A stretch of DNA of 32,726 nucleotides from Solirubrobacterales bacterium (GTDB lineage Bacteria > Actinomycetota > Thermoleophilia > Solirubrobacterales > 70-9): the NCBI GenBank assembly GCA_049425265.1, contig JBMSXD010000001.1, positions 1 through 32,726 on the forward strand. The letters run 5' to 3'. The notes under the pieces are model-generated. The model worked only from the letters and a program-made list of their open reading frames with translations. It ran no database searches and was not told the DNA's origin. A program made the position numbers and the translations under genes. Shown in pieces: positions 13,629 to 27,585 of this stretch (the stretch's first letter is position 1; each line of letters opens with the position of its first letter).

Positions 13629-14606
13629 TCAGCCGCTCCCGTCGGCCGCCACGGCCTCGAGCTGTCTCAGACCACCGTTCACCAGCGCCGTGAAGGGCCT
13701 GGCCAAGGGCTCGCCCTTCCTGACCAGCAGCACGATGGCAAGGCCTGCGAGGAGGTCGACCACGTAGTGCTCACCGAGGTAAACGAGGGCGAAGCCCAGG
13801 GTTCCCGCATAGACCCAGCCAAGTGCTCCCTGGACCTTCCCCCCTGACTCGGAGAGGAGGATCGCCGCCATCACCGAGGTCGCGAAGTGGAGCGACGGCA
13901 TGGCCGCCCAGGGATTCGACCCGAGGGTCCCGAAGATCCTGGTCCAGGCCGGCCCCCAGAGCCTCTCCCCGAACTCGACCATGACCCGCTTGACCTCCTC
14001 ATCGGTATGGCCGTTCTCCGACGCCCACCAAGGTGGCGCTGTCGGAGCGGCGAAGTAGACGACGCACCCGAGGTCGAAGACGGCCGCCATCTGGCGGGCC
14101 GAATGCGGGAAGGCATCGCGGTCTCGGAGCAGGATCCAGAACAGGGCCAGGTAGGGCTGGACAAACCAGAGCCAGTGGGTCCAGGCCGAGATCCGGGTCA
14201 GGACCCCCCCGGCCGGACCATCGTGCAGCAGTCGCTGGAGTCGCGCGTTGGGAAGGACACCCCGTCCGATCCACCGGTCGGCGACGATCGGGTAATCGAT
14301 CAGGAGCCTTCGTCTGAGTCGTGTCGGATTGTCGTAGGGGAGCTCATGGGTTACGGCGAAGGCCCACATCTGCCCGAGGAACAGGGCAACATCCCGTCGG
14401 CGCGAACGGGGCCAGAGGACCGCGATCGCAGCCGGTGCGAGCACCGTAGAGGCGACCGTGACCGCGGCCGGAATCCGAAGCTGGCGGCGAATGTGGGGAA
14501 CCACGACCGCGGCAGCCAGCGCGGTGACGGAGGCCGCCCTGAGCAGGGTCGAGGCCGTCGACCGTCTCCTTCGCCCGGGTCTGGGCTGGAGCAACGAACG
14601 GAGCAT
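13629..14606 (-). CDS. PAP2 superfamily (PAP2_3 / inositol-phosphoceramide-synthase-like) membrane protein
   Basis: C-terminal motifs 'AMPSLHFATS' and 'YLGEHYVVDLLAG' (PSxH ... HxxxD). I set the start at ATG 14604-14606 ('MLRSLLQ'). The longer ORF to 14843 would overlap the divergent subunit II-like gene. Confidence 0.72.
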   Translation of the reverse strand: MLRSLLQPRPGRRRRSTASTLLRAASVTALAAAVVVPHIRRQLRIPAAVTVASTVLAPAAIAVLWPRSRRRDVALFLGQMWAFAVTHELPYDNPTRLRRRLLIDYPIVADRWIGRGVLPNARLQRLLHDGPAGGVLTRISAWTHWLWFVQPYLALFWILLRDRDAFPHSARQMAAVFDLGCVVYFAAPTAPPWWASENGHTDEEVKRVMVEFGERLWGPAWTRIFGTLGSNPWAAMPSLHFATSVMAAILLSESGGKVQGALGWVYAGTLGFALVYLGEHYVVDLLAGLAIVLLVRKGEPLARPFTALVNGGLRQLEAVAADGSG

Positions 14607-14684
14607 CGCGGCCAAGGGTAGGCGACCGCGTCCCCGGCTGCCGACGGGCGGCCGGGAGGAAGGCGCCCGTCCGTTCCTTCCGCA

Positions 14685-14690
14685 TAGAAT
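14685..14690 (+). promoter_or_regulatory. TAGAAT (-10-like hexamer) overlapping the first ATG of the subunit II-like gene
   Basis: The sequence 'gcaTAGAATGgcc' is seen directly. This is one of only three TAGAAT hexamers I found by eye on either strand of the window. Confidence 0.25.
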
Positions 14691-15507
14691 GGCCACGCTC
14701 GTGGTGCTCTCCCGGAGAAAGCCGCTGCCCCTCGCCGTGGCCGCGATCGGAACCGTCGCGGCCGTCCTGATCGGTGCCGATCCGGCATCGGCCCTCTCGC
14801 TGAACCCGGATGCGATCTCGCCCGGGATCGCCAAGGGCAACACCCTTCACACGATCATGTTCGTCGTGATCGTGCTCGGGATCCTCGTGGTCAACCTCGC
14901 GATCCTGAGGGCGGTCCGCCCGCGTCATCGCTACGTCGAGGCCGAGGAGGTCGAGAGACCGAGCCGCTCGGGTCGTGTTGGGATCCTGCTCTCCCTGGTC
15001 GCCGTGGCGATCTTCGTCGTGGCGACCGTCTACACCTCTGCTTCCCGCGAGGTTCCCGAAAGCCGCGCGTCGGTCGATGGGACCCTCGAGGACGGCTCCC
15101 TCCGGATAACGGCAACCGGCCAGCAGTGGCTCTGGCGATTCAGTTACCCGAACGGTGCCTTCGGCTACCACCGACTGGTCGTACCGAAGGGCGTAACGAT
15201 CTCGCTCGAGCTGACTTCGAGCGACGTCGTCCATGGCTGGAACGTTCCCCCGCTCACCGGCAAGGCGCAGGCCGTTCCGGGCCAGACCCACCAGATCAGC
15301 TTCCGCGCCGACGAGGAGGGAACCTTCCGCGGCTGGGCATCCGTACTCTCGGGACAGGGCTACGCCGACATGGAATCGGTGGTCGAGGTCGTCCCGCCCG
15401 ATGAGTACCTGACCTACATCCGACGGCTCAAGAGGGAGATTCAGGGTGCTCAGGACATCGTCGAGGGCCAGGTCCAGGCCCAGGCCAGAAGGGCGATGAA
15501 CCAGTGA
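14689..15507 (+). CDS. Heme-copper oxidase subunit II-like cupredoxin protein lacking the CuA cysteines
   Basis: Two N-terminal TM segments plus a cupredoxin domain colinear with CtaC ('QQWLWRFSYP', 'DVVHGWNVP'). The CuA loop reads 'GWASVLSGQGYADM' where CtaC has 'ICTELCGAGHSVM'. The start is uncertain: ATG 14689, or GTG 14701/14704 if the mRNA is leaderless. Confidence 0.75.
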   Translation: MATLVVLSRRKPLPLAVAAIGTVAAVLIGADPASALSLNPDAISPGIAKGNTLHTIMFVVIVLGILVVNLAILRAVRPRHRYVEAEEVERPSRSGRVGILLSLVAVAIFVVATVYTSASREVPESRASVDGTLEDGSLRITATGQQWLWRFSYPNGAFGYHRLVVPKGVTISLELTSSDVVHGWNVPPLTGKAQAVPGQTHQISFRADEEGTFRGWASVLSGQGYADMESVVEVVPPDEYLTYIRRLKREIQGAQDIVEGQVQAQARRAMNQ

Positions 15508-17444
15508 GCGAGGAAGACGAGACGGGCATGGAAGGTCAGGAGGAGGAAACAGGGGCGGCCCCGGAAGAGGCTGTGGCCGAGGAAGAAGCCGCAACGGCTG
15601 AGACTCCCCCCGACGCATCCGGGGAAGAAGCCACCGTTACGGAGTCCACCGTTACGGAGTCCGAGGCGGAAATCACCGTCGTGGACTCCGGGGAGGAAGT
15701 CACCACTGTCGAGCAGTCTGAGGATGCGGCCGACCCCTCCCCCGACGCTGGGCTCTATCCCAAGACCGAACCGATCCCCAGGCCGGAGGTATCGGTCGAG
15801 GGCGAACCGGGGCCAAGGCAGCGCTGGATCGAACTCGCGACCAGCGCCGACCACAAGGACATCGGTCGAATACTCATCGGCACCTCCGTCGGCTCCCTCT
15901 TTCTTGCGGCCGTGCTCCTGGTGCTGCTCCGGCTCCAGCTGGCCATCCCCGAAAACGGCTTCCTCGAGCCGGTCACGTTCGACCGGTTGCTCTCGCTCTA
16001 CGGGGCAACAGCGATCTTCTTCTTCCTCCTGCCGCTCTTCTTCGGACTCTTCTACTTCCTGGTGCCCCTGATGATCGGGAGCCGGGGGACCGCCCTTCCC
16101 CGGCTGGGTCAGGTCGGCATGTGGCTGATCCTGCTCGGTGGGGTACTGCTCTACTCGACCATCCTCTACACGCCACCGGAAGCAGGGATCAACCCGCTTC
16201 CGCCGCTCTCGGAGCTCGCCTTCACCTCGAACAACGGGGTCGACGCCTGGATCGCCGGGGTCGGTTTGGCGACTCTCGGGTACATCCTGATCACGATCGA
16301 CCTGCTGGTGACGATCCGGCACCTGCGGGCCCCCGGGATGGCCTGGCGTCGGACGCCGGTTCTGGTCTGGACCGCCGCCGTGGTCACCTGGCTGTTCGCG
16401 ATCATCGGACCGATCTTCCTCGCCGCGGCGACGATGCTGATGATCGACCGTCGCCTAGGGGGAGGGTTCTTCACCGGTGGCGCGGGCGGGGCCCCGCTGC
16501 TCTGGCAGCACCTCTCGTACATCTTCTTCGCGGGGGTCTACGCGCTCACCGCGATCTCGGCACTCGGTGTGGCGACCGAAGTGATCCAGACATTCACCGG
16601 GCGGCGTTCTCCCGATCGCAAAGTGATCTTTGGATCGATGGTGGCGATCGCAGTGATGGGAACCCTTGCCTGGGGCCAAAACATGTACACGGCACCGATC
16701 GGAATCGGGGTCAAGTACTTCGCGATGTTCATGGCCATCGGCCTCATCGTTCCCTTCGGGCTGATCTACAACTCGTTGATTCGAGCGGTTTCCAGGTCCG
16801 ATTTCCACATGCGGGCCCCGCTTAGGTATGCGATGGGGGCGCTCTCGTTCGGCTCGATCGGACTCCTGGTCGAGCTCAGCCAGTCGACGATCGCGGTCGG
16901 TACCCAGCTCCAGCAGACCTACGACGCCTGGGCCGCGACCCACTTCGCGATGATCGGGTTCGGCCTGTTCGGAGGCCTCGCCGCCCTCAGTTACTGGTAC
17001 CCGAAGATGACCGGCCGGATGCTGAATGAGGACCGTGCCAGGAAGTCGTTCTGGCTCGTGGTCGGCGGCACGGCGATCGCCGTAGTGCCCCTGTTCGGTG
17101 CCGGCGTCGAGGGGCAGGTGACCGACGCCTTCCGGTTCGCGGAGGGTGAGGGAGTAAGCGCCTACAACCTGATCGCGACCCTTGGCACCCTGCTGCTCTT
17201 CCTGGGCATCGTCCTGACGATCGGGAACCTGATCCGCAGTCGGGTCGAGGAACCCCTGGCGCCCCCGGACCCCTGGCTCGGGGAGACGCTCGAGTGGCTC
17301 GCCCTCTCCCCGCCCCCAGCCCACAACTTCGATGAGCTGCCGGATGTCCGCAGCGAGGTCCCGCTGACCGACATCCGCGAAGTCCTGACCCGTTTAGACC
17401 GTGAGCGTGATCATGAAGCGCGCGAAACCGAGCCGGTAGCCTGA
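15504..17444 (+). CDS. Heme-copper oxidase subunit I-like 12-TM protein lacking heme/CuB ligands, with an acidic N-terminal extension
   Basis: Colinear with CtaD from 'ADHKDIG' to 'TLEWLALSPPPAHNFDELP', but 5 of the 6 ligand His are replaced (see findings). The GTG start overlaps the upstream TGA (GTGA). The first ~100 aa are Glu/Thr/Ala-rich, so the true start could be later. Confidence 0.8.
   Translation: MSEEDETGMEGQEEETGAAPEEAVAEEEAATAETPPDASGEEATVTESTVTESEAEITVVDSGEEVTTVEQSEDAADPSPDAGLYPKTEPIPRPEVSVEGEPGPRQRWIELATSADHKDIGRILIGTSVGSLFLAAVLLVLLRLQLAIPENGFLEPVTFDRLLSLYGATAIFFFLLPLFFGLFYFLVPLMIGSRGTALPRLGQVGMWLILLGGVLLYSTILYTPPEAGINPLPPLSELAFTSNNGVDAWIAGVGLATLGYILITIDLLVTIRHLRAPGMAWRRTPVLVWTAAVVTWLFAIIGPIFLAAATMLMIDRRLGGGFFTGGAGGAPLLWQHLSYIFFAGVYALTAISALGVATEVIQTFTGRRSPDRKVIFGSMVAIAVMGTLAWGQNMYTAPIGIGVKYFAMFMAIGLIVPFGLIYNSLIRAVSRSDFHMRAPLRYAMGALSFGSIGLLVELSQSTIAVGTQLQQTYDAWAATHFAMIGFGLFGGLAALSYWYPKMTGRMLNEDRARKSFWLVVGGTAIAVVPLFGAGVEGQVTDAFRFAEGEGVSAYNLIATLGTLLLFLGIVLTIGNLIRSRVEEPLAPPDPWLGETLEWLALSPPPAHNFDELPDVRSEVPLTDIREVLTRLDRERDHEARETEPVA
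15631..15660 (+). repeat. Perfect 15-bp tandem duplication (2 copies) inside the acidic N-terminal coding region
   Basis: CCACCGTTACGGAGT occurs at 15631-15645 and again at 15646-15660, encoding 'TVTES-TVTES'. Confidence 0.9.
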
Positions 17445-17448
17445 TGTC

Positions 17449-18378
17449 ATGAGCGCTGACGCCACCGGTGCAGGAGTGCGCAGAAGGACTGAGTCGGGCA
17501 ACTCGCTGCTCGGCGACGTGGCGACAGTCGTCCTCGACTACCTGAGTCTGACCAAGCCGAGGATCATCAGCCTGCTTCTCCTGACCACGGTCGCGACGAT
17601 GTTCGTCGCCGATCCGAACGGGCCTTCGCTCTCGGTGATCCTCTGGACGATGCTCGGGGGCTACCTGGCAGCCGGGGGGGCAGGTGCGATCAACCACTAC
17701 CTCGACCGTGACCGGGACGCCCTTATGGCCCGGACCAGTGGGAGGCCACTGGTTACCGGGCGGATCGAGCCGATCAACGGCCTGATCTTCGGGATCGGCC
17801 TCGGGATTGCCGCCTTCGGACAGCTATGGATGACGGTCAACCTGCTGACCGCCGTACTCGCGATGGTCGGGCTGCTCGGCTACGTCCTCCTCTACACCCT
17901 CTGGCTGAAGCCCCTGACCCCGCAGAACATCGTGATCGGCGGCAGTGCCGGCGCGGTCCCGCCGCTGGTCGGCTGGGCAGCAGCCACGGGAACCCTCTCC
18001 TGGGAGGCCGCATGGCCCTTCCTGATCGTCTTCTTCTGGACCCCTCCCCACTTCTGGGCCCTCTCTTTGATGATCAAGGACGACTACGCCCGGACCGGCA
18101 TCCCGATGCTCCCGGTGGTCCGGGGTGAAGCCCACACCCGGCGCCAAATCCTCCTCTACGCGGTCGTCCTGCTGGCAGTGTCGCTCGGACCGGTCGCAAC
18201 CGGGCTGCTCGGGGGCCTCTACCTGGCCTCGGCCCTTGTCCTCGGGGTCGCCTTCATCGGGTTTGCCCTGCTGCTCGAGAGACGTGCCGGGGAGCGCCTT
18301 GCCCTGAGGACCTACATCTTCTCCCTCGCTTACCTTGCCCTGTTGTTCATCGCAATGGCCGTCGACGCGGTCGTCTGA
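17449..18378 (+). CDS. ctaB: Protoheme IX farnesyltransferase (heme O synthase)
   Basis: UbiA-type polytopic protein with 'YLSLTKPRIISLLLLTTVATM', 'GAINHYLDRDRDALMARTSGRPL' (NxxxDxxxD) and 'WTPPHFWALS'. Confidence 0.92.
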   Translation: MSADATGAGVRRRTESGNSLLGDVATVVLDYLSLTKPRIISLLLLTTVATMFVADPNGPSLSVILWTMLGGYLAAGGAGAINHYLDRDRDALMARTSGRPLVTGRIEPINGLIFGIGLGIAAFGQLWMTVNLLTAVLAMVGLLGYVLLYTLWLKPLTPQNIVIGGSAGAVPPLVGWAAATGTLSWEAAWPFLIVFFWTPPHFWALSLMIKDDYARTGIPMLPVVRGEAHTRRQILLYAVVLLAVSLGPVATGLLGGLYLASALVLGVAFIGFALLLERRAGERLALRTYIFSLAYLALLFIAMAVDAVV

Positions 18379-18818: not shown

Positions 18819-19262
18819 TCAGGCAGCCTGCCGGTCGGGGGGATCTTCCGAGGTTGCACCGTCGGAAGTCCAGGCTCTCATGATGTCCCTCATCGAGAGG
18901 ACTCCGACCAGCTCGCCGTCGGAACAGACGACCAGATGCCTTATTCCCCGCTTTGACATCTCGGTCGCAGCCCGCTCCATGCTCCAGTCCGGGGATGCGG
19001 TGATCACCTTCTCACTCATGTGGTCCCGAACCAGCTCCGAGTCTGGATCGAGTCCCGAGCCAATGGCATTCAGGAGATCTCGTTCCGTCAGCACCCGGGG
19101 AACGGGCCACTCCTCGTCCTCGACGATCGCCGCTCCTATCCCCCGCTCCGACATCCGCGAAGCGGCTTCTCGAAGACTCAAACTGGGGCCGATCCTCAAG
19201 ACGACCTCCGACATCCCGACTTGAATCTCCACTTCTGTTCCTTCCTCCGAACCCGGATTCAC
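18819..19262 (-). CDS. CBS-pair domain protein
   Basis: Two CBS repeats ('IGAAIVEDEE..VLTERDLLNAI' and 'GIRHLVVCSDGELVGVLSMRDIM'). The start is GTG 19262, or ATG 19214 ('MSEVVLRIG'). Confidence 0.8.
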   Translation of the reverse strand: MNPGSEEGTEVEIQVGMSEVVLRIGPSLSLREAASRMSERGIGAAIVEDEEWPVPRVLTERDLLNAIGSGLDPDSELVRDHMSEKVITASPDWSMERAATEMSKRGIRHLVVCSDGELVGVLSMRDIMRAWTSDGATSEDPPDRQAA

Positions 19263-19352: not shown

Positions 19353-20063
19353 ATGAGTCGTCGTTCCCTCACCCTCAAGACTCTCTCGACCCTTTCGGCG
19401 GGCGGACTCCTCATCGCGCTTGCCTCCGGATGCGGGACCGAGAGTTCGGCCGAGATCTCAGGCGGCTTCCAGGACAGGGGCCGTCAGATCTTCAACTCCA
19501 AGTGCGGGACCTGTCATAAGCTGGCTCAGGCGGCGAGCCAGGGTAACCAGGGACCCAACCTCGATACTGCCTTCGCCGCGGCCCGAGCTGCCGGAATGAG
19601 CGAGGACACCGTGAAGGGAGTGGTGCTCTACCAGATCTACCATCCCCGTCCTTCGGTCAAGGGTTACCCCGGCGTCTCGATGCCGGCGAACATAGTCACC
19701 GGCAACGACGCCGAGGACGTAGCCGCCTACGTCGCCCGTTACGCGGGTGTCCCGGGTGCCAAACCGCCGATCGCCCCGGGTGAAGGTCCAGGTGCCCAGG
19801 TGTATGCGAATCAGGGCTGTGGCTCCTGCCATATTTTCGCCGCCGCCGAATCGGCCGGTGTCCTCGGGCCCAACCTCGACGAGTACATCCCGAAGATGTC
19901 CAAGGCTCAGATCAAGCAGGCCATCACCAACCCGAGCGCAACCAAGGCGAAGGGGTACGAGAACGCCGTGATGCCAAATCGCTGGGCTAACCTCCCGCCG
20001 AAGGAACTCGACGAGCTAGTCAACTTCCTCGTCGATTACGCCGCCGGACCCGGCGGGAACTGA
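19353..20063 (+). CDS. Di-heme class I c-type cytochrome, probable lipoprotein
   Basis: Signal peptide ending 'LIALASGCG' (lipobox-like). Two heme-binding motifs, 'CGTCH' and 'CGSCH', each followed by a candidate Met ligand ('VSMPAN', 'AVMPNR'). Confidence 0.85.
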   Translation: MSRRSLTLKTLSTLSAGGLLIALASGCGTESSAEISGGFQDRGRQIFNSKCGTCHKLAQAASQGNQGPNLDTAFAAARAAGMSEDTVKGVVLYQIYHPRPSVKGYPGVSMPANIVTGNDAEDVAAYVARYAGVPGAKPPIAPGEGPGAQVYANQGCGSCHIFAAAESAGVLGPNLDEYIPKMSKAQIKQAITNPSATKAKGYENAVMPNRWANLPPKELDELVNFLVDYAAGPGGN

Positions 20064-20091: not shown

Positions 20092-21042
20092 GTGGCCGCC
20101 CGCTTGAAGAACCTCTCGATCTCTCCGGAGACCTACTCGAAGGTCGCCGGGGCCGCCCTCGTCGCGCTGATCCTGATCGTCTTCACCGGATCGGCGGTGC
20201 GTCTGACCGCCTCGGGGCTCGGCTGCCCCGACTGGCCCCGCTGCTACGGCGAATACATCCCGCCCAGCCAGCTGAACGCCTGGATCGAGTTCGGGAACCG
20301 GATGTTGACCGGCCTGGTCGGTCTGGCCGTGGTCGCCGCCTCCCTGCTCGCCTTCTTCCGGCGACCCTTCCGGTGGCATCTGGCAGCGTTCGGCGCTCTG
20401 CTGCCCCTCGGGGTGATCGGACAGGTCATGCTCGGTGCCTTCGTGGTCGAGTACCACCTGCCGCCGGAACTGGTGATCGGACACTTCATCCTCTCGATGA
20501 TCCTGCTCGACGCGGCCTTCGTGCTGTTCTGGTGCTCTCGCTACGAGCCCGGTGAACGTCGCTTCTCGACCGATGTCTTCGGGGTGTGGTCGGTCAGGGC
20601 CCTGATTCCACTCGGCCAGCTAACGGTGCTCCTGGGAACGATCACGACGGCGTCCGGGCCACACCCCGGTGACCACGATCGTGAGCTGGTCCAGAGGTTC
20701 GACTTCAAGGGGCCCGAAACGCTCGAGTGGATCGTCCAGCGACACGCGACGATGGCCGTCCTGTTCGGGCTTGGGACCCTTGTAGTGCTGGCGATCCTGA
20801 TGCGTCGGGGGGGTGACCGCAGGGCAGTCAGGCCCGTCTCGGTCGTTGCCGGTCTGATCGGCTTCCAGATCGCACTCGGGATAACCCAGTGGCTCCTCGA
20901 GCTGCCTGCGATCCTGGTCTGGTTCCACGTGGTGACCGCAACCCTGATCTGGGTCGCGGTGCTCTGGGCGGTCGCGACGGCCGGCCAGATCGACTACGCA
21001 CGGGGACGAGCGCCTGCCCGTGCCGCGCCGGGGGTATCCTGA
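20092..21042 (+). CDS. ctaA: Heme A synthase (COX15/CtaA family)
   Basis: 8-TM protein with 'GSAVRLTASGLGCPDWPRCYG' and conserved His in the TM helices ('HFILS', 'HPGDHD', 'WFHV'). Confidence 0.88.
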   Translation: MAARLKNLSISPETYSKVAGAALVALILIVFTGSAVRLTASGLGCPDWPRCYGEYIPPSQLNAWIEFGNRMLTGLVGLAVVAASLLAFFRRPFRWHLAAFGALLPLGVIGQVMLGAFVVEYHLPPELVIGHFILSMILLDAAFVLFWCSRYEPGERRFSTDVFGVWSVRALIPLGQLTVLLGTITTASGPHPGDHDRELVQRFDFKGPETLEWIVQRHATMAVLFGLGTLVVLAILMRRGGDRRAVRPVSVVAGLIGFQIALGITQWLLELPAILVWFHVVTATLIWVAVLWAVATAGQIDYARGRAPARAAPGVS

Positions 21043-21046
21043 CTCC

Positions 21047-21409
21047 ATGGAAGATTTTCTCGAGGGGTCACACCCCGTTTTCCAGGGCTTCGAGCCCGAT
21101 CCGTTCGATCCCGACCAGGTGATCGACGGTGACCCCGAGGCCTTCGACCTGACCCTCTCGGAATCGGGAGACGGGGCAGAAGTGGCCGGCTTCTGGATGT
21201 GTACCCCGGGGACCTTCTCCGACACCGAGGAGGAGGAATCGTTCGTCGTCATCCGGGGCAAGGCCGAGGTCGAGATGGCCGACGGCACGAGGATCGCCCT
21301 CGGGCCGGGCGACACCCACAGCTTCCGGGCCGGTGAAAAGACCGTCTGGAAGGTGACCCAACCACTGGTCAAGTCCTACTGGGCCAGACCGACTCACGGC
21401 CCGGCCTAG
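21047..21409 (+). CDS. Cupin domain protein (DUF861 / cupin_3-like)
   Basis: About 120 aa with 'GFWMCTPGTFSDTEEEESFVVIRGKAEVEMADGTRIALGPGDTHSFRAGEKTVWKVTQPLVKSY', the typical small cupin_3 pattern. ATG 21047 lies 4 nt after the ctaA stop. Confidence 0.7.
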   Translation: MEDFLEGSHPVFQGFEPDPFDPDQVIDGDPEAFDLTLSESGDGAEVAGFWMCTPGTFSDTEEEESFVVIRGKAEVEMADGTRIALGPGDTHSFRAGEKTVWKVTQPLVKSYWARPTHGPA

Positions 21410-21417
21410 CCCGGAGC

Positions 21418-21741
21418 CTAGCCGTCCTCGGAATCCCCGTCGCGGCCAGTTGGCGGCCCCTCCGGCCCCTCGCCCTCGAGCGTGTCGGTCCCACGGAGCC
21501 TCCGCCAGGCGCCCCGCATGGCGACGACCGAGACGAAGGCCCCCAGCAGCAGCGCAGCGATGAACCCGACCGTGGACGAGATCAACTTGGCGAGGAGGAT
21601 GACCAAGGCGGCGGCAACGATCACCGCAACGACCCATCTGAACGCGGCCTGTTCGGACTCGAGCGGGTTGCCCAGCCTGAACCTCCGATCTGACCGGCCC
21701 TCGGTCAGAGGATGTAGATCGTCGTGAACACCACGACCCAC
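21418..21741 (-). CDS. Hypothetical 2-TM membrane protein downstream of ctaE (possible small oxidase subunit)
   Basis: Two hydrophobic helices ('FRWVVAVIVAAALVILLAKLI', 'VGFIAALLLGAFVSVVAM') and an acidic tail. GTG 21741 would overlap ctaE by 37 nt, and the only later in-frame candidates are CTG/GTG, so the start is uncertain. Confidence 0.45.
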   Translation of the reverse strand: MGRGVHDDLHPLTEGRSDRRFRLGNPLESEQAAFRWVVAVIVAAALVILLAKLISSTVGFIAALLLGAFVSVVAMRGAWRRLRGTDTLEGEGPEGPPTGRDGDSEDG

Positions 21742-22340
21742 ATGATGTCCACGAAGTGCCAGTAGATGCCGGGCACTTCGACACCCAGGTGGTCCTTCTC
21801 GGCGGGGCCGAAGTGGCCGCGGAAGGCCCTGATGTTCGCGAAGGTCAACAACAGCAGGCCGACGAATACGTGGGCCCCGTGAAGTCCAGTGAGGCTGAAG
21901 AAGATCGAGCCGAAGGCGCCGTCAGCAGGCGAGAAACCGATGTGGATGTACTCGTTGATCTGGATGAAGAGGAAGGTCACACCGAGCAACCAGGTCATCA
22001 CAAGCCCCAGCTTCAGTCCGTTGTGGTTGTTGTGCCGGATCGCCTCCAGCGCGTAGTGCACGGTGAAGCTCGAGGAGATCAGGATGACCGTGTTGATCCC
22101 GGCGATAAGGACAGGCAGTTCGATCCCGACCGGAGGCCAGGTATCGGGGCCGACGACGACCCGGAGGAAGAAGTAGGCCGCGAAGAAGCTTGCGAACAGC
22201 ATTACCTCCGAGAGGATGAAGAGGAGGATCCCGAGGATCGTCTGATCGATCCGGGCGCTCTGGTTAGCCTCGGGAGGACCGTGGTGGTGGTCCTCGGCGG
22301 GGGTCGCGTGACCGGTTGTGGCGACGCTGGCGCTCTCCAT
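21705..22340 (-). CDS. ctaE: Cytochrome c oxidase subunit III
   Basis: 'FFSLTGLHGAHVFVGLLLL' and C-terminal 'VEVPGIYWHFVDIMWVVVFTTIYIL' are canonical COX3 blocks. Confidence 0.92.
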   Translation of the reverse strand: MESASVATTGHATPAEDHHHGPPEANQSARIDQTILGILLFILSEVMLFASFFAAYFFLRVVVGPDTWPPVGIELPVLIAGINTVILISSSFTVHYALEAIRHNNHNGLKLGLVMTWLLGVTFLFIQINEYIHIGFSPADGAFGSIFFSLTGLHGAHVFVGLLLLTFANIRAFRGHFGPAEKDHLGVEVPGIYWHFVDIMWVVVFTTIYIL

Positions 22341-23215
22341 CAGACCTCCACCCCAGCTTCCTCGCCGTCTCCGGCCGCGACCGCGGCGACCACGGTCTCC
22401 CCGGCGCGCCCTGCCTCATGATGGGAAACCGGTTTGTCGGTGAACTCCCGGACCCGCCCGATCAGGTCGTCTTTGAGCCATTGGGACTCGTCCCCGGGCA
22501 GGGTCGAAATCAGGATGTCATCCACCTGGTAGAACTCGATCGCATTCTTGACCGCGGAGAACGGGTCCGAAGCGAGCGGCTGGCCCGTCGCGTCGACATC
22601 GCTCTCGTAGAGCCTCGCCATCAGTCCCGCCAGCCCCCGGGTGACCGCTGCCTGGGGTACTCCCTCGGTCGATGGGGCGATGATCGTGTACCTGTGGGGG
22701 CTCTCGGCAGCCCTTGCCAGCAGGCGATCAGCAAGATCGGGACTCGAAAGGGTCTGGTTGCCGATCACCAGGGTGTGGGTTACGTCCTGACGGACCGAGT
22801 CGTCCTCGATCCGAACCGGAATGTGGGTCACCGTGGTGCCGGGGGCGAATTCACCCTTGGCCCACTCGACCAGGTCTCGCCTCGCGAAGCCGAACCTCGT
22901 CTCGTACAGGCATGAGAGCAGGACCTCGGACGGTCGATGGCTCCTGACCGCGTCCCCGAGCGCTAGCTCGGGGGCCGGATCGAGAACCTCGCCGACCGCC
23001 TCGATACCGAACTCCTCGAGAACTGCAAGGGTGACCTCGACCCGGCTGCGTGCAGCCTGGGCCGTCTCCTCCGGAGAAGTGATCTGGCCGGCGGTCGGGC
23101 GGTTGGCAGGGGCTACGGCCACCACGTACGAGGCTTCCGGCGCCCGTTCCTGGGCGGCACCCAGGAGTTTCCGGCCACCGGCAACCTCATTCAGGAATAG
23201 GAGCAGGGGCCGCAC
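22340..23215 (-). CDS. Uncharacterised soluble protein made of two tandem alpha/beta (USP/HUP-like) domains, embedded between ctaD and ctaE
   Basis: The internal duplication is visible by eye (aa 3-133 vs 146-265). The GTG start is 3 nt after the ctaD stop, and the TGA overlaps the ctaE ATG (TGATG). High-GC3 codon usage. Confidence 0.7.
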   Translation of the reverse strand: MRPLLLFLNEVAGGRKLLGAAQERAPEASYVVAVAPANRPTAGQITSPEETAQAARSRVEVTLAVLEEFGIEAVGEVLDPAPELALGDAVRSHRPSEVLLSCLYETRFGFARRDLVEWAKGEFAPGTTVTHIPVRIEDDSVRQDVTHTLVIGNQTLSSPDLADRLLARAAESPHRYTIIAPSTEGVPQAAVTRGLAGLMARLYESDVDATGQPLASDPFSAVKNAIEFYQVDDILISTLPGDESQWLKDDLIGRVREFTDKPVSHHEAGRAGETVVAAVAAGDGEEAGVEV

Positions 23216-23218
23216 CGG

Positions 23219-25132
23219 TTACGTGGCGGCAGGTACGGTCGACGGCTTCGGCTCCGGGACGGTCGCCTCCGAGTCCTCGTCGCCCATGATTGCGTGCCTG
23301 GCGCCAGGCGTCCCATACTCGTAGGGACCGCCGACGACCCTCGGGATTTCATCGAAGTTGAAGGTAGGAGGCGGTGAGGAGACGAGCCACTCGATCGTCT
23401 TCGACCTCCAGGGGTTGCCGCTCGCCCTGGGGCCGTACTTCCAGCTGACCACCATGTTGTAGAGGAAGACCAGCTGCGCAAGCCCGAGGATCAGGGAGAA
23501 GAAGCTGATCACAAGGTTCCACTCCCCGAACTGGCTGGCGTAGTCGGCGACCCTCCGGGGCATCCCCTCGAGACCGATCCAGTGCTGTGGAATGAAGGTC
23601 CCCCAGGTGCCGATCATCGTGCCCCAGAAGTGAATCCGGCCGAGCCGTTCGTCGTACATCCGGCCGGTCATCTTCGGGAACCAGTAGTAGATCCCGGCGA
23701 AGATCGTGAACACCGAGCCGCCGAACAGGACGAAGTGGATGTGGGCGACGACGAAGTACGTGTCGGACATGTGGATGTCGAGCGGAACCATCCCGAGCAT
23801 CACGCCACTGATCCCTCCCACCGTGAAGGTCACGATGAACCCGAGGGCGAACAGCATTGCCGTCGAATAGGTGTGGATCTTGCCGTAGAAGAGGGTTCCC
23901 AGCCAGGAGAAGATTTTGATCCCAGTCGGGACCGCGATCAGCAGGGTCGTAATCATGATCGGGACCCGCAGCCAGGAGAACATCCCGGCCACGAACATGT
24001 GGTGGGCCCAGACCGAGTAGGAGAGGACGACGATCCCGAGCAGGGCGAGGGCCATCAACCGGTAGCCGAAGATCGGTTTCCGGGCGTTGGTCGCGATTAC
24101 CTCAGAGATGATCCCGAAGCCGGGCAACATCATGATGTAGACCGCCGGGTGTGAGTAGAACCAGAAGATGTGCTGGTAGCTGAGGACGTCACCGCCTTCG
24201 AGGAAGTTGAAGAAGTTCATCCCCATGATCCGGTCGAAGAGGACCATGAACTGGACCCCCGCGATGAACGGGGTGGCCCCGACCACGATCAGCGAAGTCG
24301 AGAGGTTCGCCCAGACGAGCAGGGGCATACGCCACAGGTTCATCCCGGGCGCACGCATGGTGATGATCGTGACCAGGAAGTTGAGCGCGGTCGCGATCGA
24401 GGACGCCCCGGCGAACTGGACACCTACATTGAAGAAGCTCTGCCCCAGCGGTGCCCCGGTCGATAACGGTGCATAGCCGGTCCAGCCTGCATCGAACGAG
24501 CCACCCGGCGCCAGGAAGCTGCCCATGAAGATCAGCCCGGCGATCGGCAGCAACCAGAAGCTGAGGGCGTTCAACCTCGGGAAGGCCATGTCGGGCGCCC
24601 CGATCATGATCGGCAGCACGTAGTTGGCGATCCCGGCGAACATCGGGATGATGAACAGGAAGATCATCACCGTCGCGTGGGTCGAGAACAGTCCGTTGTA
24701 GACGTTCGGGTCGACGATCTGGGTCCCGGGCTGGGCCAGCTCGGCCCGGATCAGCATCGCCAGAAGTCCACCGACGAAAAAGAAGAAGAAGGTGGTGACG
24801 ATGTACTGAATGCCGATGACCTTGTGGTCGGTGTTGAAGGTGAAGTAGTCCTGCCATCGGGTGGCACCGTGGCCGGAATGGTCATCGGGAACGGTCGGCT
24901 TGCCCGCTGCCCAGCGGAACCAGTAGGAGAAGGCTCCGAAGCCGATCAGGAAACCGAAGGGCGCAGTGATCAGCGGGACCACGACCTGTGGGTACCCGGT
25001 CTGCTCGGTCTGGAAGGCGTCGAGTCCGGAAACGAGCCTGAGAATTACGACCAGGCCGAAGCCGAATGCGGCCCCGATCAAGGCCCCGAGGGCTCCCCGA
25101 TACCAGCCGGGCTCTCTCAAAGCATGTGCCAT
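23219..25132 (-). CDS. ctaD: Cytochrome c oxidase subunit I, A2-type, with an extra N-terminal 2-TM extension
   Basis: All six ligand His are present ('FSTHATV', 'YSHPAVY', 'WAHHMF', 'VAHIHF'), together with 'GMPRR' and 'PTGIKIFSW'. Confidence 0.95.
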   Translation of the reverse strand: MAHALREPGWYRGALGALIGAAFGFGLVVILRLVSGLDAFQTEQTGYPQVVVPLITAPFGFLIGFGAFSYWFRWAAGKPTVPDDHSGHGATRWQDYFTFNTDHKVIGIQYIVTTFFFFFVGGLLAMLIRAELAQPGTQIVDPNVYNGLFSTHATVMIFLFIIPMFAGIANYVLPIMIGAPDMAFPRLNALSFWLLPIAGLIFMGSFLAPGGSFDAGWTGYAPLSTGAPLGQSFFNVGVQFAGASSIATALNFLVTIITMRAPGMNLWRMPLLVWANLSTSLIVVGATPFIAGVQFMVLFDRIMGMNFFNFLEGGDVLSYQHIFWFYSHPAVYIMMLPGFGIISEVIATNARKPIFGYRLMALALLGIVVLSYSVWAHHMFVAGMFSWLRVPIMITTLLIAVPTGIKIFSWLGTLFYGKIHTYSTAMLFALGFIVTFTVGGISGVMLGMVPLDIHMSDTYFVVAHIHFVLFGGSVFTIFAGIYYWFPKMTGRMYDERLGRIHFWGTMIGTWGTFIPQHWIGLEGMPRRVADYASQFGEWNLVISFFSLILGLAQLVFLYNMVVSWKYGPRASGNPWRSKTIEWLVSSPPPTFNFDEIPRVVGGPYEYGTPGARHAIMGDEDSEATVPEPKPSTVPAAT

Positions 25133-25145
25133 CAGCTCGCTCCAA

Positions 25146-25985
25146 TCATGACTGAGTCACGTTGTCCCGCGTCGTCTCCTCGACACCGCTGCCACCGATC
25201 CCGCCTTCCGCCTTTTGAATCTGTCTCTGGATCTCGAGCGCCTGGTCGGCCGTCAGGATGAGGCCCGTCGGCACCTTTTCGTCCAGTTCCTTTACCCAGC
25301 GGTTGAATTTCTTCACCGGCTCGACCACCACCTTGGCCCGCATAACCGAATGGCCAGCCCCGCAGAGCTCGGTACAGATCAGCTGGAAGGTACCGACCCG
25401 GTCCGGCGTGATGACCGCGTCCGTTGTGATCCCGGGCACGTTGTCCTTCTTGATCCGCCACTCGGGAACCCAGAACGAATGGAGCACGTCCTGGGCGTGC
25501 ATGTTGAAGACGACCTGCCGTCCCACCGGAACGTGGAACTCGCCCTCCGACCACTTGTTGCCCTCGGTGGGGTACCCGAAAGTCCAGGCGAACTGCTGGG
25601 AGTAGACGTTGACGATCAGTGGGTCGGAGTCGACCTCCTCGATGTCATCGAGGACGGCCCAGCTGTACCCGGCCGCGAACAGGACGATGATCGTCGGGAT
25701 GATCGTCCAGATGAGCTCGAGCTTCGTATTGCCGTGGATCGGCAGGCCATCGCTCTCGTCGCCAGGCTTGACCCTCCAGCGGTAGAGGGCGTAGCCCAGG
25801 AAGACGCAGACGATCGCGAAGACGAAGGAGGAGATGATGATCATCCAGTCGAGCAGCGTGTCGATCGGGCCGGCCGCAGTGGACCCGGCCTCGCCGTTCC
25901 AGTCGATCTGGACCATCAGCACCGCGATGACGGCACCGATCGCGAGGGAGACGATCGCAAGTCTGAGGTAAGGGACCTTTGGCAT
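25146..25985 (-). CDS. ctaC: Cytochrome c oxidase subunit II (CuA-containing, no fused cytochrome c domain)
   Basis: Two N-terminal TM helices plus a cupredoxin domain with a full CuA site ('DVLHSFWVP' ... 'CTELCGAGHSVM'). There is no CxxCH motif. Confidence 0.93.
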   Translation of the reverse strand: MPKVPYLRLAIVSLAIGAVIAVLMVQIDWNGEAGSTAAGPIDTLLDWMIIISSFVFAIVCVFLGYALYRWRVKPGDESDGLPIHGNTKLELIWTIIPTIIVLFAAGYSWAVLDDIEEVDSDPLIVNVYSQQFAWTFGYPTEGNKWSEGEFHVPVGRQVVFNMHAQDVLHSFWVPEWRIKKDNVPGITTDAVITPDRVGTFQLICTELCGAGHSVMRAKVVVEPVKKFNRWVKELDEKVPTGLILTADQALEIQRQIQKAEGGIGGSGVEETTRDNVTQS

Positions 25986-26029: not shown

Positions 26030-27585
26030 TCACGGACCGGACGGCGGAAGCGGCCGGATCTCGCCGGCCGATGCCCGGATCACGTCCCGGGCCACCCCTT
26101 CCCAGCTCCAGTGGTGATCGGCCGAGGCGGCCAGGGCGAGTTCGAGCGCCGTGCGCTGTTCGCCGGAGGTCTCGAGCCACCGATCGAGCCGGGATGCGAT
26201 CTCGGGAACCGCATCCGGTCCGAGGTCGAAGGAGAGGAAGGGGGCGGCGGCGGGCACGTCTTTCGAGAGGGTCGCGGTGACCTCCTCGAGTCCGGAATGC
26301 CTTGCGCAGACGGGCAGCACCCCGGAGGCGGCAGCCTCGGCCGCGACCATTCCGAACGCCTCGGGGAAGGTGCTCGGTACGACCATCGAATCGGTCGACG
26401 GGACGAGTTCGGCGACCTCGTCGTGTTCGAGGCGCCCGGTGAACAGGATCGCCCCTGCCGATGATCGGGCCGAGGCCCGGTAGTCGGCCGGCGGCGCGGG
26501 CAGGCAGGCGGAGCGGCCAGGAAGTCGTCGAGCATCCCGAGCCTGCCGGCCGTGCCCCCTTCCAATCCCCGGCCCTCTGCGGCAATCGCCCGAGCGCCGG
26601 CGAGATCTCCCTCGGAGAGTCTTTCCACCAGGGCTTCGAGACCATCGGCGAACTCCCCGAACCCGGCGAACAGGAGGGTCGCCCCCGGGTGGTTACCGCG
26701 AACCATCGGCCAGGCCGCGGCCAGCAGGTCGGCCCCCTTGGAGACGATCAGCTTGCCGACAAAGACGACTCGGGGACCCTCCGAGTCGGCGAAGACCCGA
26801 ATTGCAGCCGAGGCCCTCGGGCGATCACGGCCTAGGCCGGAGCCACCGTTCCCGTCGGCGATCCGGTCGGCGAGCCCGGCGAGCAGGTCCCCGGCCTGCG
26901 AACGATCGATCGGGTGGAATCGCCGGGCATCCACACCGGGAGGCCCGAGGCCGGTCTTCTCCTCGAGGCCGATTCCCGGAATCGTCTGCCAGAGGCTTTC
27001 GGCCGTGTGGCGGGAGCCGACCAGGATCGCCGAGGCGCGGTCTAGGCCTTCCCGCGCCCAGGGGATGAAGCGCGGATTCGGCCGGATCGTGTATTCGAGG
27101 TCGGAACCGTGGTTCTTCACGGCGAACGAGGTGATCCCGGCCCGGGCCAGGATCGCCGGTCCCATTACCAGGTGGTTGGCGAGTGCTGCATCCGGCTCCC
27201 CCACCCGTTCGACTACTTCGCCCACCGCGCGGACGTTGGCCTCGACGTAGGCCTCGATCTCCCGATCCTCGAGCGACGGGAATGCCCTGGCATCGAACCC
27301 CTCATAGCGATCCTCTACGTAGACGGGAAGCAGCGTCCCGATCGGGGGCCGGTAGACCGTTACAGACCCCGGTCCGTCGCCTCCTCCCGAGGTCGTCACT
27401 GTCAGCTCACCGGCCTCCCAGTCGCCGACTGCATCGACCCAGTCGAAGCCGGCCGCATCGCGATCCTGGCAGAAGAGGTGGACTTCGTGGCCCAATCCGG
27501 CAAGGGCTCGGGCCAGGTTGGCGTTGTAGATGTTGCTCCCGGTGCCGCGCAGCAGGTAGCCGTGGAAGACCAGGATCCTCATCAC
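26030..27585 (-). pseudogene. GT4-family (GT-B) glycosyltransferase interrupted by a single frameshift
   Basis: The N-terminal frame (from 27585) is a good GT-B N-domain ('MRILVFHGYLLRGTGSNIYNANLARALAGLGHEVHLF') up to '...GRLGMLDDFL'. It then degenerates into Pro/Arg-rich nonsense. The true continuation, 'PPADYRASARSSAGAILFTGRLEHDEVAELVPSTDSMVVPSTFPEAFGMVAAEAAASGVLPV', lies in another frame that ends at 26030. The total span is 1556 nt, which is not a multiple of 3. Confidence 0.75.

Follow-up and report, generated by a model that had tools for sequence, protein, structure and literature searches.

A tandem USP-like protein encoded between cytochrome c oxidase subunits I and III, a probable cytoplasmic module of the Thermoleophilia enzyme

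Introduction

In most descriptions, bacterial A-family haem-copper oxidases are built from membrane subunits alone, I-III(IV). Additions to this core, such as the subunit I+III fusion of Thermus caa3 and the CtaF/subunit IV of Actinobacteria, are integral membrane segments, and to our knowledge no soluble cytoplasmic subunit or domain is known in the bacterial enzymes. Mitochondrial cytochrome c oxidase has matrix-side accessory subunits, IV and VIa, with ATP/ADP allosteric sites, and these have been proposed to act as nucleotide sensors. Universal stress proteins (USPs) belong to the HUP class, a Rossmann-like fold group, and the ligand crevice of a USP-like fold usually lies at the C-terminal ends of its strands. 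We know of no tandem USP in an oxidase operon and of no USP-like module on an oxidase, and our search of the literature on Thermoleophilia ctaD, the Solirubrobacterales aa3 oxidase and USPs as oxidase accessory subunits found nothing relevant.

Here we analyse a stretch of 32,726 nucleotides (hereafter the window) from a Solirubrobacterales genome (contig JBMSXD010000001.1, assembly GCA_049425265.1). A preliminary description, made from the sequence alone, had drawn attention to an unnamed soluble protein, here called X, encoded inside the oxidase operon. We found that X is a conserved member of this operon and that, in related lineages, subunit I itself carries the two domains as a fusion. 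These results suggest that the oxidase of a whole class of Actinomycetota has a cytoplasmic part.

Results

The oxidase genes of the window lie on the minus strand in the order ctaC, ctaD, X, ctaE. The first gene of the operon, ctaC (25146..25985), encodes cytochrome c oxidase subunit II (TIGR02866 CoxB, 173.6 bits, cutoff 147.7; also Pfam COX2 and COX2_TM) and is followed by ctaD (23219..25132), which encodes a subunit I of 637 aa (Pfam COX1, 5.7e-150; TIGR02891, 655.9 bits). The N-terminus of CtaD is extended by ~100 aa and has two extra hydrophobic segments (residues 12-40 and 49-69). Its C-terminal tail terminates in ...GARHAIMGDEDSEATVPEPKPSTVPAAT and runs collinear with the linker found in the CtaD::X fusions described below. 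X is an ORF of 291 aa (22340..23215, minus strand), sandwiched by ctaD and ctaE (21705..22340), the latter encoding a short form of subunit III with 211 aa (Pfam COX3, 5.3e-43). Separate ctaA and ctaB genes are found near X, and the window has a second oxidase gene set that does not include X.

Both junctions of X are as tight as first described. At the ctaD-X junction (23213..23221), the ctaD stop TAA (23221..23219) is followed by CCG and then by the GTG start of X (23215..23213), 3 nt past the stop. No Shine-Dalgarno sequence is present upstream of this GTG, which suggests that X is coupled to ctaD by termination-reinitiation. At the X-ctaE junction (22338..22342), the sequence TGATG combines the TGA of X (22342..22340) with the ATG of ctaE (22340..22338), the two having one base (A) in common. 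A GGAGG inside the X tail (22345..22349), 4 nt upstream of the ctaE ATG, serves ctaE. None of the RNA sequencing runs that we searched for the X gene holds it. The X protein has no hydrophobic segment (maximum Kyte-Doolittle 19-residue mean 1.08), as expected of the non-membrane protein previously proposed, and it is acidic (45 D+E vs 26 K+R). Its gene has a GC content of 0.65-0.67, similar to that of its neighbours, and a GC3 of 0.79.

We compared the window with 80 species-level related loci, the best 80 of 314 genome-scan matches, all of them from metagenome-assembled genomes (MAGs). The order ctaC-ctaD-X-ctaE recurred in 80/80 of these loci, and the identity of X across them (60-97 %) was similar to that of CtaC. 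Within the same best 80 of 314 matches, ctaD and X share 4 nt at their stop and start codons in 62/80 loci, and the X/ctaE junction is a 1-nt overlap in 58/79 and a 2-nt gap in 15/79. These conserved junctions bear out the proposed translational coupling of X to subunits I and III. More than 3000 homologues of X were found, as were 998 representative clusters, and distant tandem homologues at ~30-35 % identity (P0139, P0331, P0325, P0474 and P0456) are also encoded in the order COX2-COX1-X-COX3. X belongs stably to the operon, is conserved in it and is no recent insertion; the absence from close relatives and the atypical composition that an insertion would predict were not seen, the gene being present in 80/80 loci (best 80 of 314) and having neighbour-like GC.

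X had been called an obvious internal duplication. The duplication itself stands and the word obvious does not: BLASTP of the two halves against each other gave no match (E 1.2), and profile-profile alignment with hhalign paired residues 2-135 with 146-269 at 99.8 % probability (E 5.8e-30, 20 % identity). The two segments originally aligned by eye, aa 3-122 and aa 148-259, sit within this alignment. Moreover, an HMM of the C-domain matches the N-domain of the window's X at 6.8e-14, and an HMM of the N-domain matches the C-domain at 8.7e-13. By these profile comparisons the duplication is real, and it is visible at the profile level only.

An AlphaFold model built from the alignment (pLDDT 85.1, pTM 0.81) was used alone, a single-sequence run (pLDDT 39) having been discarded. 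The model predicts the order b1-a1-b2-a2-b3-a3-b4-a4-b5 in both halves of X, that is, the five-stranded parallel sheet of the HUP class. The N-terminal domain (aa 1-138; 22802..23215) is delimited by this model together with hhalign, the cross-HMM match and the domain alignment. The C-terminal domain (aa 142-272; 22400..22792) has the same predicted fold, and the chain ends in an acidic tail (aa 273-291; 22343..22399) that is predicted with low confidence (pLDDT 39-45). Foldseek matched the model with a probability of ~1.0 to USP structures, including the tandem USPs 3ab8, 3cis, 4r2j and 3loq and the USP domain of KdpD (7ji4), and also matched it to the C-terminal domains of KCC transporters and to 2iel. 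The USP/HUP-class alpha/beta fold of the preliminary description is thus supported by model and structure search alike. However, when X is compared with whole tandem USPs, only one domain superposes at once (query-normalised TM-score 0.30-0.34, rmsd 17-20 A), which suggests that the predicted packing of the two domains differs.

At the level of sequence, X falls outside the Pfam Usp family. It has no match among Pfam and NCBIfam models, and Pfam Usp (PF00582) gave no match at E <= 1. The best Usp HMM scores among its relatives were 14.6 bits (P0204) and 11.2 bits (P0325), against a gathering score of 24 bits, and Pfam/NCBIfam scans of distant relatives gave sub-threshold noise only. A regular-expression search for the ATP motif G-x2-G-x9-G-[ST] found it in 0/24 selected family members and in 3/484 sequences overall. 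In the X family, ST.P...S.W occupies the position of this motif after strand b4. ATP can be bound by a domain with a degenerate motif, as reported for TTHA0350, and a missing motif does not rule out ATP binding (PMC3673472). Several matches gave no functional lead. The top Foldseek match, CTP:phosphoethanolamine cytidylyltransferase, is another tandem HUP protein that superposes poorly (rmsd 15 A, TM-score 0.3). The Foldseek viral library returned generic HUP-class folds only, and the single sequence of X gave chance matches only against PDB sequences (a haem-binding protein and thymidylate kinase, E ~0.15). The cluster names "phosphopantetheine adenylyltransferase" and "LacI/PurR" on distant relatives are automatic, and we treated them as fold-level mis-annotation.

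Although no family could be named at first, a related one can be. The X family profile matches the structural-genomics "hypothetical protein" TT0030 of Thermus thermophilus (PDB 2IEL, chain A) at E 2.4e-9, with profile positions 149-271 aligned to residues 3-136 (hmmsearch against PDB sequences). The N- and C-domain HMMs match TT0030 at 2.1e-11 and 3.6e-12, respectively, and the Foldseek superposition of X on 2iel (identity 23-24 %) has a target-normalised TM-score of 0.70. TT0030 and X have LVVAh.T, vLLVP, ST.P...SRWL and PV.HV in common. By profile similarity, then, X belongs to a TT0030/2IEL-like domain family that has no Pfam or NCBIfam model; a literature search for TT0030 and 2IEL found no function or publication. 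Whereas X has two domains and lies inside an oxidase operon, TT0030 has one (~138 aa) and stands alone, away from the oxidase genes of Thermus, as does a single-domain relative in another lineage. The 4.8-kb contig of a tandem relative, P0478, likewise carries no genes for oxidase subunits. The X-like domain as such is therefore not specific to oxidases.

An alignment of 34 single domains gave the family signature LVvAN[EQ]T..G..L / vv.P / DpDP..A / ST.P...S.W[LM]r.dL / PV.HV. The conserved residues (AN[EQ]T, vv.P, DPDP and ST.P...S.W) sit at the C-terminal ends of strands b1-b4. In the window's X, the C-domain is nearer to this signature, retaining most of it (GNQT, ISTLPGDESQWL), and is the part that best matches TT0030/2IEL. 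The N-domain is a diverged copy, with LNEV for ANET and LSCLYETRFGF for ISThP..RSGW; it retains N-E, P36, G70, G75, D79-P and S101 and has lost T-x-P and S-x-W. With these losses in the N-domain, one or even both of the putative pockets of X may be dead.

The two domains of X also occur at the C-terminus of subunit I. One such CtaD::X protein (P0263, 921 aa) scores above the TIGR02891 CtaD cutoff (678.9 vs 670.75 bits), and its residues 636-914 comprise both X domains. Miltoncostaeaceae and other Thermoleophilia MAGs supplied some 30 more COX1+X proteins, with identities of 45-73 %. In the DNA of one fused locus (L091), no stop codon interrupts the reading frame from COX1 to X, and COX3 begins 10 nt further on. 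Two apparent X::CtaE or CtaD::X::CtaE fusions (P0306 and P0324) were set aside as probably frameshifted assemblies, because stretches of them look like out-of-frame GC-rich translation.

Another kind of fusion involves a small protein with two transmembrane segments (2-TM) encoded after ctaE (21418..21741, minus strand). Its start is uncertain, with an in-frame CTG (21675..21673) preceded by GGAGG, and positions 21508..21669 are homologous to the TM part of a gene in a related locus (L033, 6528..7178). The window's 2-TM protein has no soluble domain. Its homologue carries one C-terminal X-like domain, a third copy, in 16/80 loci (best 80 of 314) and in the distant locus L088. The fusion to subunit I is the key new evidence for X as a probable oxidase part. 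Together with the third domain copy on a membrane protein of the operon, it gives strong indirect support, at the level of sequence, to the earlier suggestion of a peripheral subunit.

Discussion

We propose that the A-family (aa3-type) haem-copper oxidase of Thermoleophilia probably includes X as a cytoplasmic, peripheral and stoichiometric module, possibly a ligand-sensing one. We infer physical binding to the oxidase and a cytoplasmic location from gene order and from the fusions; ligand binding and regulation are our guess. X would be translated from the ctaCD-X-E mRNA by reinitiation at the ctaD stop, with translation running on into the ctaE start at TGATG, and this coupling would keep its amounts near those of subunits I and III. 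The protein would most likely dock at the cytoplasmic face of CtaD/CtaE, a site that we favour because the same two domains form a C-terminal extension of CtaD in sister lineages. There, it could serve as a small-molecule-responsive, nucleotide-type regulatory cap, or otherwise as a structural cap, and the putative ligand site would be the crevice that holds the family-conserved residues at the C-terminal ends of b1-b4.

What might such a module do? In the more ambitious form of our proposal, the tandem domains are a ligand-gated allosteric regulator, in which an adenine nucleotide or second messenger in the crevice alters turnover or proton uptake from the cytoplasmic side. This is a tentative idea, possible but distinctly doubtful. 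The nucleotide sensing advanced in the preliminary description fares less well than the subunit idea, since the classical USP ATP motif is absent in 24/24 checked members, and for that reason we treat it as a guess. X could also be a purely structural cytoplasmic subunit that senses no ligand and acts as a stabiliser, through dimer or supercomplex contacts, or as a shield of the cytoplasmic face, which we consider rather unlikely. The same synteny and fusions would fit it, as would the absent ATP motif, the degenerate signature of the window's N-domain and the known use of USP domains as dimerisation modules (PMC3673472). However, conservation in the family is concentrated at the crevice-forming strand ends, a pattern seen more often in binding sites than in scaffolds, and the TTHA0350 domain with a degenerate motif still binds ATP (PMC3673472).

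The remaining explanations place X outside the mature enzyme. A transient assembly or maturation factor, holding the CtaD C-terminus or timing the addition of CtaE, would suit a gene located exactly between those of subunits I and III and tightly coupled to both, and assembly genes are common in oxidase operons (ctaA and ctaB in the window, CtaG in the related locus L089). Covalent fusion to CtaD throughout a lineage, and to the 2-TM protein in others, implies instead a permanent 1:1 presence, and in Pfam/NCBIfam scans X resembles no known family of assembly factors, among them CtaA, CtaB, CtaG/Cox11, Surf1 and Sco. The haem and copper insertion factors known to us are membrane-bound or periplasm-facing. 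An assembly role, also raised in the preliminary description, is less likely given the fusions, and we hold it to be improbable. It is more improbable still that X, as a USP-like protein of general stress response or regulation, has other targets and is merely co-transcribed with the oxidase. The unrelated contexts of the single-domain TT0030 group and the contig of P0478 would agree with this; the synteny in 80/80 loci (best 80 of 314), which reaches members at ~30 % identity, and two independent kinds of fusion to membrane proteins of the oxidase operon would not. That the ORF is spurious, a recent insertion or an assembly error splitting ctaD is barely credible: only the GTG start and its missing Shine-Dalgarno sequence speak for it, and the >3000 homologues, the split junction conserved in 62/80 species and the order conserved in 80/80 (both among the best 80 of 314) refute it. 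The 998 representative clusters, the normal composition and the confident fold prediction tell against it as well. A cytoplasmic oxidase part that has gone undescribed is the most likely identity of X.

Why does this matter? A whole class of Actinomycetota appears to carry the module, split or fused, in hundreds of species that are common in soil and fresh water. If X binds the enzyme, it would be a new kind of oxidase subunit, and a function could be assigned to a family whose structure is solved (2IEL) but which lacks both annotation and a Pfam model. If metabolite sensing were also true, a bacterial terminal oxidase would for the first time be seen to receive direct allosteric input of this kind, and the split forms of Solirubrobacterales and the fused forms of Miltoncostaeaceae would be versions of a single device, in which one enzyme can have as many as three sensor domains. 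Because split and fused variants exist in nature, the sensor idea can be tested directly.

How does X compare with known systems? The tandem USPs TTHA0350 (3AB7/3AB8), Rv2623 (3CIS), UspE/YdaA (4R2J) and AF1760 (3LOQ) resemble X in having two USP-type domains per chain with the same strand-helix order, whereas X falls below the Pfam Usp threshold, has no ATP motif and, judging by the model, may pack differently. The closest analogies come from the USP domain of KdpD (7JI4), TeaD of the TeaABC transporter system and the tandem USP-like domains at the C-termini of KCC/NKCC transporters (6M22, 7NGB and 6VWA). In all of these, as for X, a USP-like domain of the cytoplasm is paired, by gene context or by fusion, with a membrane protein of energy metabolism or transport, and TeaD is listed among the ATP-binding USPs (PMC3673472). 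Unlike in those cases, the proposed partner of X is a respiratory haem-copper oxidase. The caa3 I+III fusion and CtaF are, like X, lineage-specific additions or fusions around ctaD and ctaE, but X is a soluble tandem alpha/beta protein and they are integral to the membrane. Mitochondrial subunits IV and VIa have the peripheral position that we propose for X, on the N-side, outside the catalytic core of an A-family oxidase. This likeness is one of analogy only, as these subunits have different folds and are not homologous to X. If the regulator reading is true, X would represent a bacterial equivalent, evolved independently, of the way in which ATP/ADP control the mitochondrial oxidase.

Results

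The oxidase operon occupies the reverse strand in the order ctaC (COX2, 25146..25985), ctaD (COX1, 23219..25132), a 291-aa ORF that we call X (22340..23215) and ctaE (COX3, 21705..22340), the subunits being assigned by Pfam and NCBIfam models. The ctaD stop codon is followed after 3 nt by the GTG of X (...GCC ACG TAA CCG GTG CGG...), and the TGA of X and the ATG of ctaE have their A in common (...GAG GTC TGATGG...). The preliminary description had given this layout and both junctions correctly. The GTG of X lacks a preceding Shine-Dalgarno sequence, and a GGAGG lies 4 nt 5' of the ctaE ATG, within the 3' end of X. The protein had also been called non-membrane, in agreement with its lack of any hydrophobic segment (maximum 19-residue Kyte-Doolittle mean, 1.08). 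X is acidic (D+E 45 vs K+R 26), and its GC3 is 0.79.

How widely is this arrangement conserved? A word-indexed search returned >3000 relatives. The best 120 of these are ~300 aa long and 64-99 % identical to X, lack Pfam domains and are unnamed or called 'hypothetical protein'; the labelled ones derive from MAGs of Solirubrobacterales or Actinomycetota. When representatives at 50 % identity were searched exhaustively, 998 clusters were obtained at E <= 0.001, and in the GTDB species representatives a relative is encoded by 314 stretches. We compared the best 80 of these 314. ctaD lies directly upstream of X and ctaE directly downstream in 80/80, with ctaC further upstream wherever the contig extends that far. 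The ctaD stop and X start overlap by 4 nt in 62/80 loci, and the X stop and ctaE start overlap by 1 nt in 58/79 and lie 2 nt apart in 15. Identity to the window proteins in the same loci is 60-97 % for X, 55-95 % for CtaC, 71-83 % for CtaE and 80-98 % for CtaD; X is therefore selected to a degree comparable with a core subunit. Recent insertion had been named as a way for the first proposal to fail; recurrence of X in related loci and a G+C content (0.65-0.67) matching its surroundings instead mark it as a conserved gene rather than an insertion.

Tandem relatives at ~30-35 % identity keep the same position: COX1-X-next gene with overlapping junctions (P0139), COX2-COX1-X-COX3 (P0331), COX2-COX1-X-COX3-36 aa-CtaG (P0325), and caa3-type COX2 followed by COX1-X-COX3 (P0474, P0456). 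All oxidase-linked relatives seen are metagenome-derived.

X-type domains are also found fused to oxidase components. Several cluster representatives are COX1 proteins with two C-terminal X-type domains. One of them, P0263 (921 aa), has Pfam COX1 over residues 120-556 and X-type domains at 636-770 and 776-914, scores above the NCBIfam CtaD cutoff (678.9 vs 670.75 bits), and is encoded after a COX2 gene. With its C-terminal 340 residues as query we found 67 proteins, ~30 of them with a COX1 domain and 45-73 % identity; named COX1+X proteins are from Miltoncostaeaceae, Thermoleophilia and Actinomycetota MAGs. In the DNA of one Miltoncostaeaceae MAG (L091), a stop-free frame runs from the COX1 helices through ...GARHAVVFAPDEIGGGELTEHEKRTIVVVANETV... 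into both X-type domains, and COX3 starts 10 nt past the stop. In the window, CtaD ends ...GARHAIMGDEDSEATVPEPKPSTVPAAT and X begins MRPLLLFLNEV, so the split and fused forms are collinear, the split one having a stop and restart within the linker. Two candidate X::CtaE fusions (P0306, P0324) were set aside as apparent products of frameshifted assembly.

A second type of fusion involves a small two-transmembrane (2-TM) protein encoded 3' of ctaE (21418..21741, -; homology at 21508..21669). Most loci have a homologue, and in 16/80 it carries one further C-terminal X-type domain (for example, L033 6528..7178, 216 aa), an architecture also seen in the distant locus L088. The window 2-TM protein is without such a domain, which its gene has lost or never possessed. 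The start of this gene is uncertain: the listed GTG at 21741 gives a 37-nt overlap with ctaE, and homologues start where the window has an in-frame CTG (21675..21673), preceded by GGAGG (21686..21682). Both termini of A-family subunit I lie on the cytoplasmic side, and the 2-TM protein has basic residues at both ends. Both types of fusion would therefore put the X-type domain on the cytoplasmic side, anchored to the membrane portion of the oxidase.

X had been described as an obvious internal duplication. The duplication is real, but it is not obvious in the window protein, because BLASTP of residues 1-139 against 140-291 finds no match (E 1.2). Half-profiles from a 49-sequence alignment match at 99.8 % probability and E 5.8e-30 (residues 2-135 vs 146-269, 20 % identity); the window N-domain matches a C-domain HMM at 6.8e-14, and the window C-domain matches an N-domain HMM at 8.7e-13. 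The halves are plainly alike in distant relatives, and the repeats of P0193 are nearly identical. So are those of the similar tandem protein P0478 (L090 287..1261), which points to recent duplication or gene conversion. The P0478 domains resemble the single domain of the L088 2-TM fusion, and its 4.8-kb contig holds no oxidase subunit genes.

An AlphaFold model of X built with the 49-sequence alignment (pLDDT 85.1, pTM 0.81) has b1-a1-b2-a2-b3-a3-b4-a4-b5 in each half, the last 20 residues being disordered. Foldseek matched it in the PDB to the tandem universal stress proteins (USPs) TTHA0350 (3AB7/3AB8), Rv2623 (3CIS, 2JAX), YdaA/UspE (4R2J) and AF1760 (3LOQ), the KdpD USP domain (7JI4), the tandem USP-like C-terminal domains of KCC transporters and a tandem cytidylyltransferase. 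The predicted fold thus agrees with the earlier guess of a USP/HUP-class protein. On whole-chain superposition, tandem USPs reach a query-normalised TM-score of only ~0.31 (rmsd 17-20 A), which suggests that the two domains of X pack differently. Thermus thermophilus TT0030 (2IEL) is the best single-domain match, with 23-24 % identity and a target-normalised TM-score of 0.70, and the family profile finds the 2IEL sequence at E 2.4e-9, which groups X with this protein by sequence. The preliminary description named no family; X and its relatives indeed reach no Pfam (including Usp) or NCBIfam threshold, but a homologue can be named. The 399 TT0030 relatives are single-domain proteins of ~135-150 aa from Thermus, Chloroflexi and others, sometimes auto-named 'universal stress protein'; in two genomes inspected, no oxidase genes lie near them.

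Alignment of 34 single domains gave the signature LVvAN[EQ]T..G..L - vv.P - A..RL - G[iv].A.G - DpDP..A..dA - [de]I[iv][IV]ST.P...R.SgW[LM]r.dL..R - PV.HV. In the model of X, the conserved residues lie at the C-terminal ends of b1, b2, b3 and b4, where Rossmann-like and HUP folds usually have their ligand crevice. The window N-domain has drifted from the signature (LNEV; LSCLYETRFGF), and the C-domain retains more of it (GNQT; ISTLPGDESQWL). The USP ATP motif G-x2-G-x9-G-[ST] occurs in no selected family member. A 2013 survey of 26 USP structures (PMC3673472), in which 2IEL goes unmentioned, notes that a degenerate motif is compatible with ATP binding, as in the C-terminal domain of TTHA0350.

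Several features of the surrounding region were also recorded. CtaD has a ~100-aa N-terminal extension (residues 1-100) with two extra hydrophobic segments (12-40, 49-69), its COX1 domain starting at residue 106; P0263 has a similar extension before residue 120, and this may be a lineage feature travelling with X. A GT4-family glycosyltransferase gene (26080..27585, -) adjoins ctaC and appears frameshifted, by pseudogenization or assembly error: between 26518 and 26482, tblastn with the intact L089 homologue changes frame from -3 to -2, and ORF 26030..26386 contains the C-terminal part. L082 and L089, both distant loci, have the same gene beside the oxidase operon. A second oxidase gene set (14458..18378, +) comprises COX2 (14458..15507), a divergent COX1 with a ~110-aa acidic N-terminal extension (15504..17444) and ctaB/UbiA (17449..18378), and contains neither an X-like gene nor subunit III; L082 has the same COX1-UbiA pair upstream of its X-containing operon. 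Between the two sets lies a 147-aa CBS-pair protein (18819..19262, -), which keeps its position in L082 and L089 (53 % identity to the L089 copy). CBS pairs sense adenosine ligands, so this protein may provide the respiratory island with a second regulatory input. Towards the end of the operon run three convergent genes, for a di-haem cytochrome c (19353..20063, +), the haem A synthase CtaA (20092..21042, +) and a small cupin resembling EutQ (21020..21409, +); the cupin is also near ctaE in a dozen related loci.

Discussion

The evidence, all of it comparative or predictive, shows X to be a conserved gene, maintained by selection, that encodes a soluble tandem protein whose predicted fold is USP-like. 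The gene has a fixed place between ctaD and ctaE, its overlapping junctions are conserved, and natural fusions join its domains both to CtaD and to the operon's small membrane protein. From conservation, position and fusions together, we consider it likely that synthesis of X keeps pace with that of subunits I and III and that the protein remains bound to the oxidase on its cytoplasmic side, as a peripheral module. An unrelated stress protein that is simply co-transcribed is unlikely, because the synteny is so extensive. An assembly factor, as had also been suggested, is less likely than a peripheral module because the fusions are permanent.

What would such a peripheral module do? The position of the conserved residues, together with precedent from KdpD (its USP domain), TeaABC (with TeaD) and KCC transporters (their C-terminal domains), tentatively suggests a ligand-responsive regulatory cap; we regard this role as a guess, and a rather doubtful one. 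The main alternative is a purely structural or dimerising subunit.

The only solved relative of the family is an unpublished structural-genomics entry, and full-text literature searches of incomplete coverage turned up nothing published on that entry or on a USP-like subunit linked to an oxidase. Membrane proteins with USP-like regulatory modules are already known. We know of no earlier example in the operon or polypeptide of a haem-copper oxidase, and to our knowledge it is this setting that is new here.
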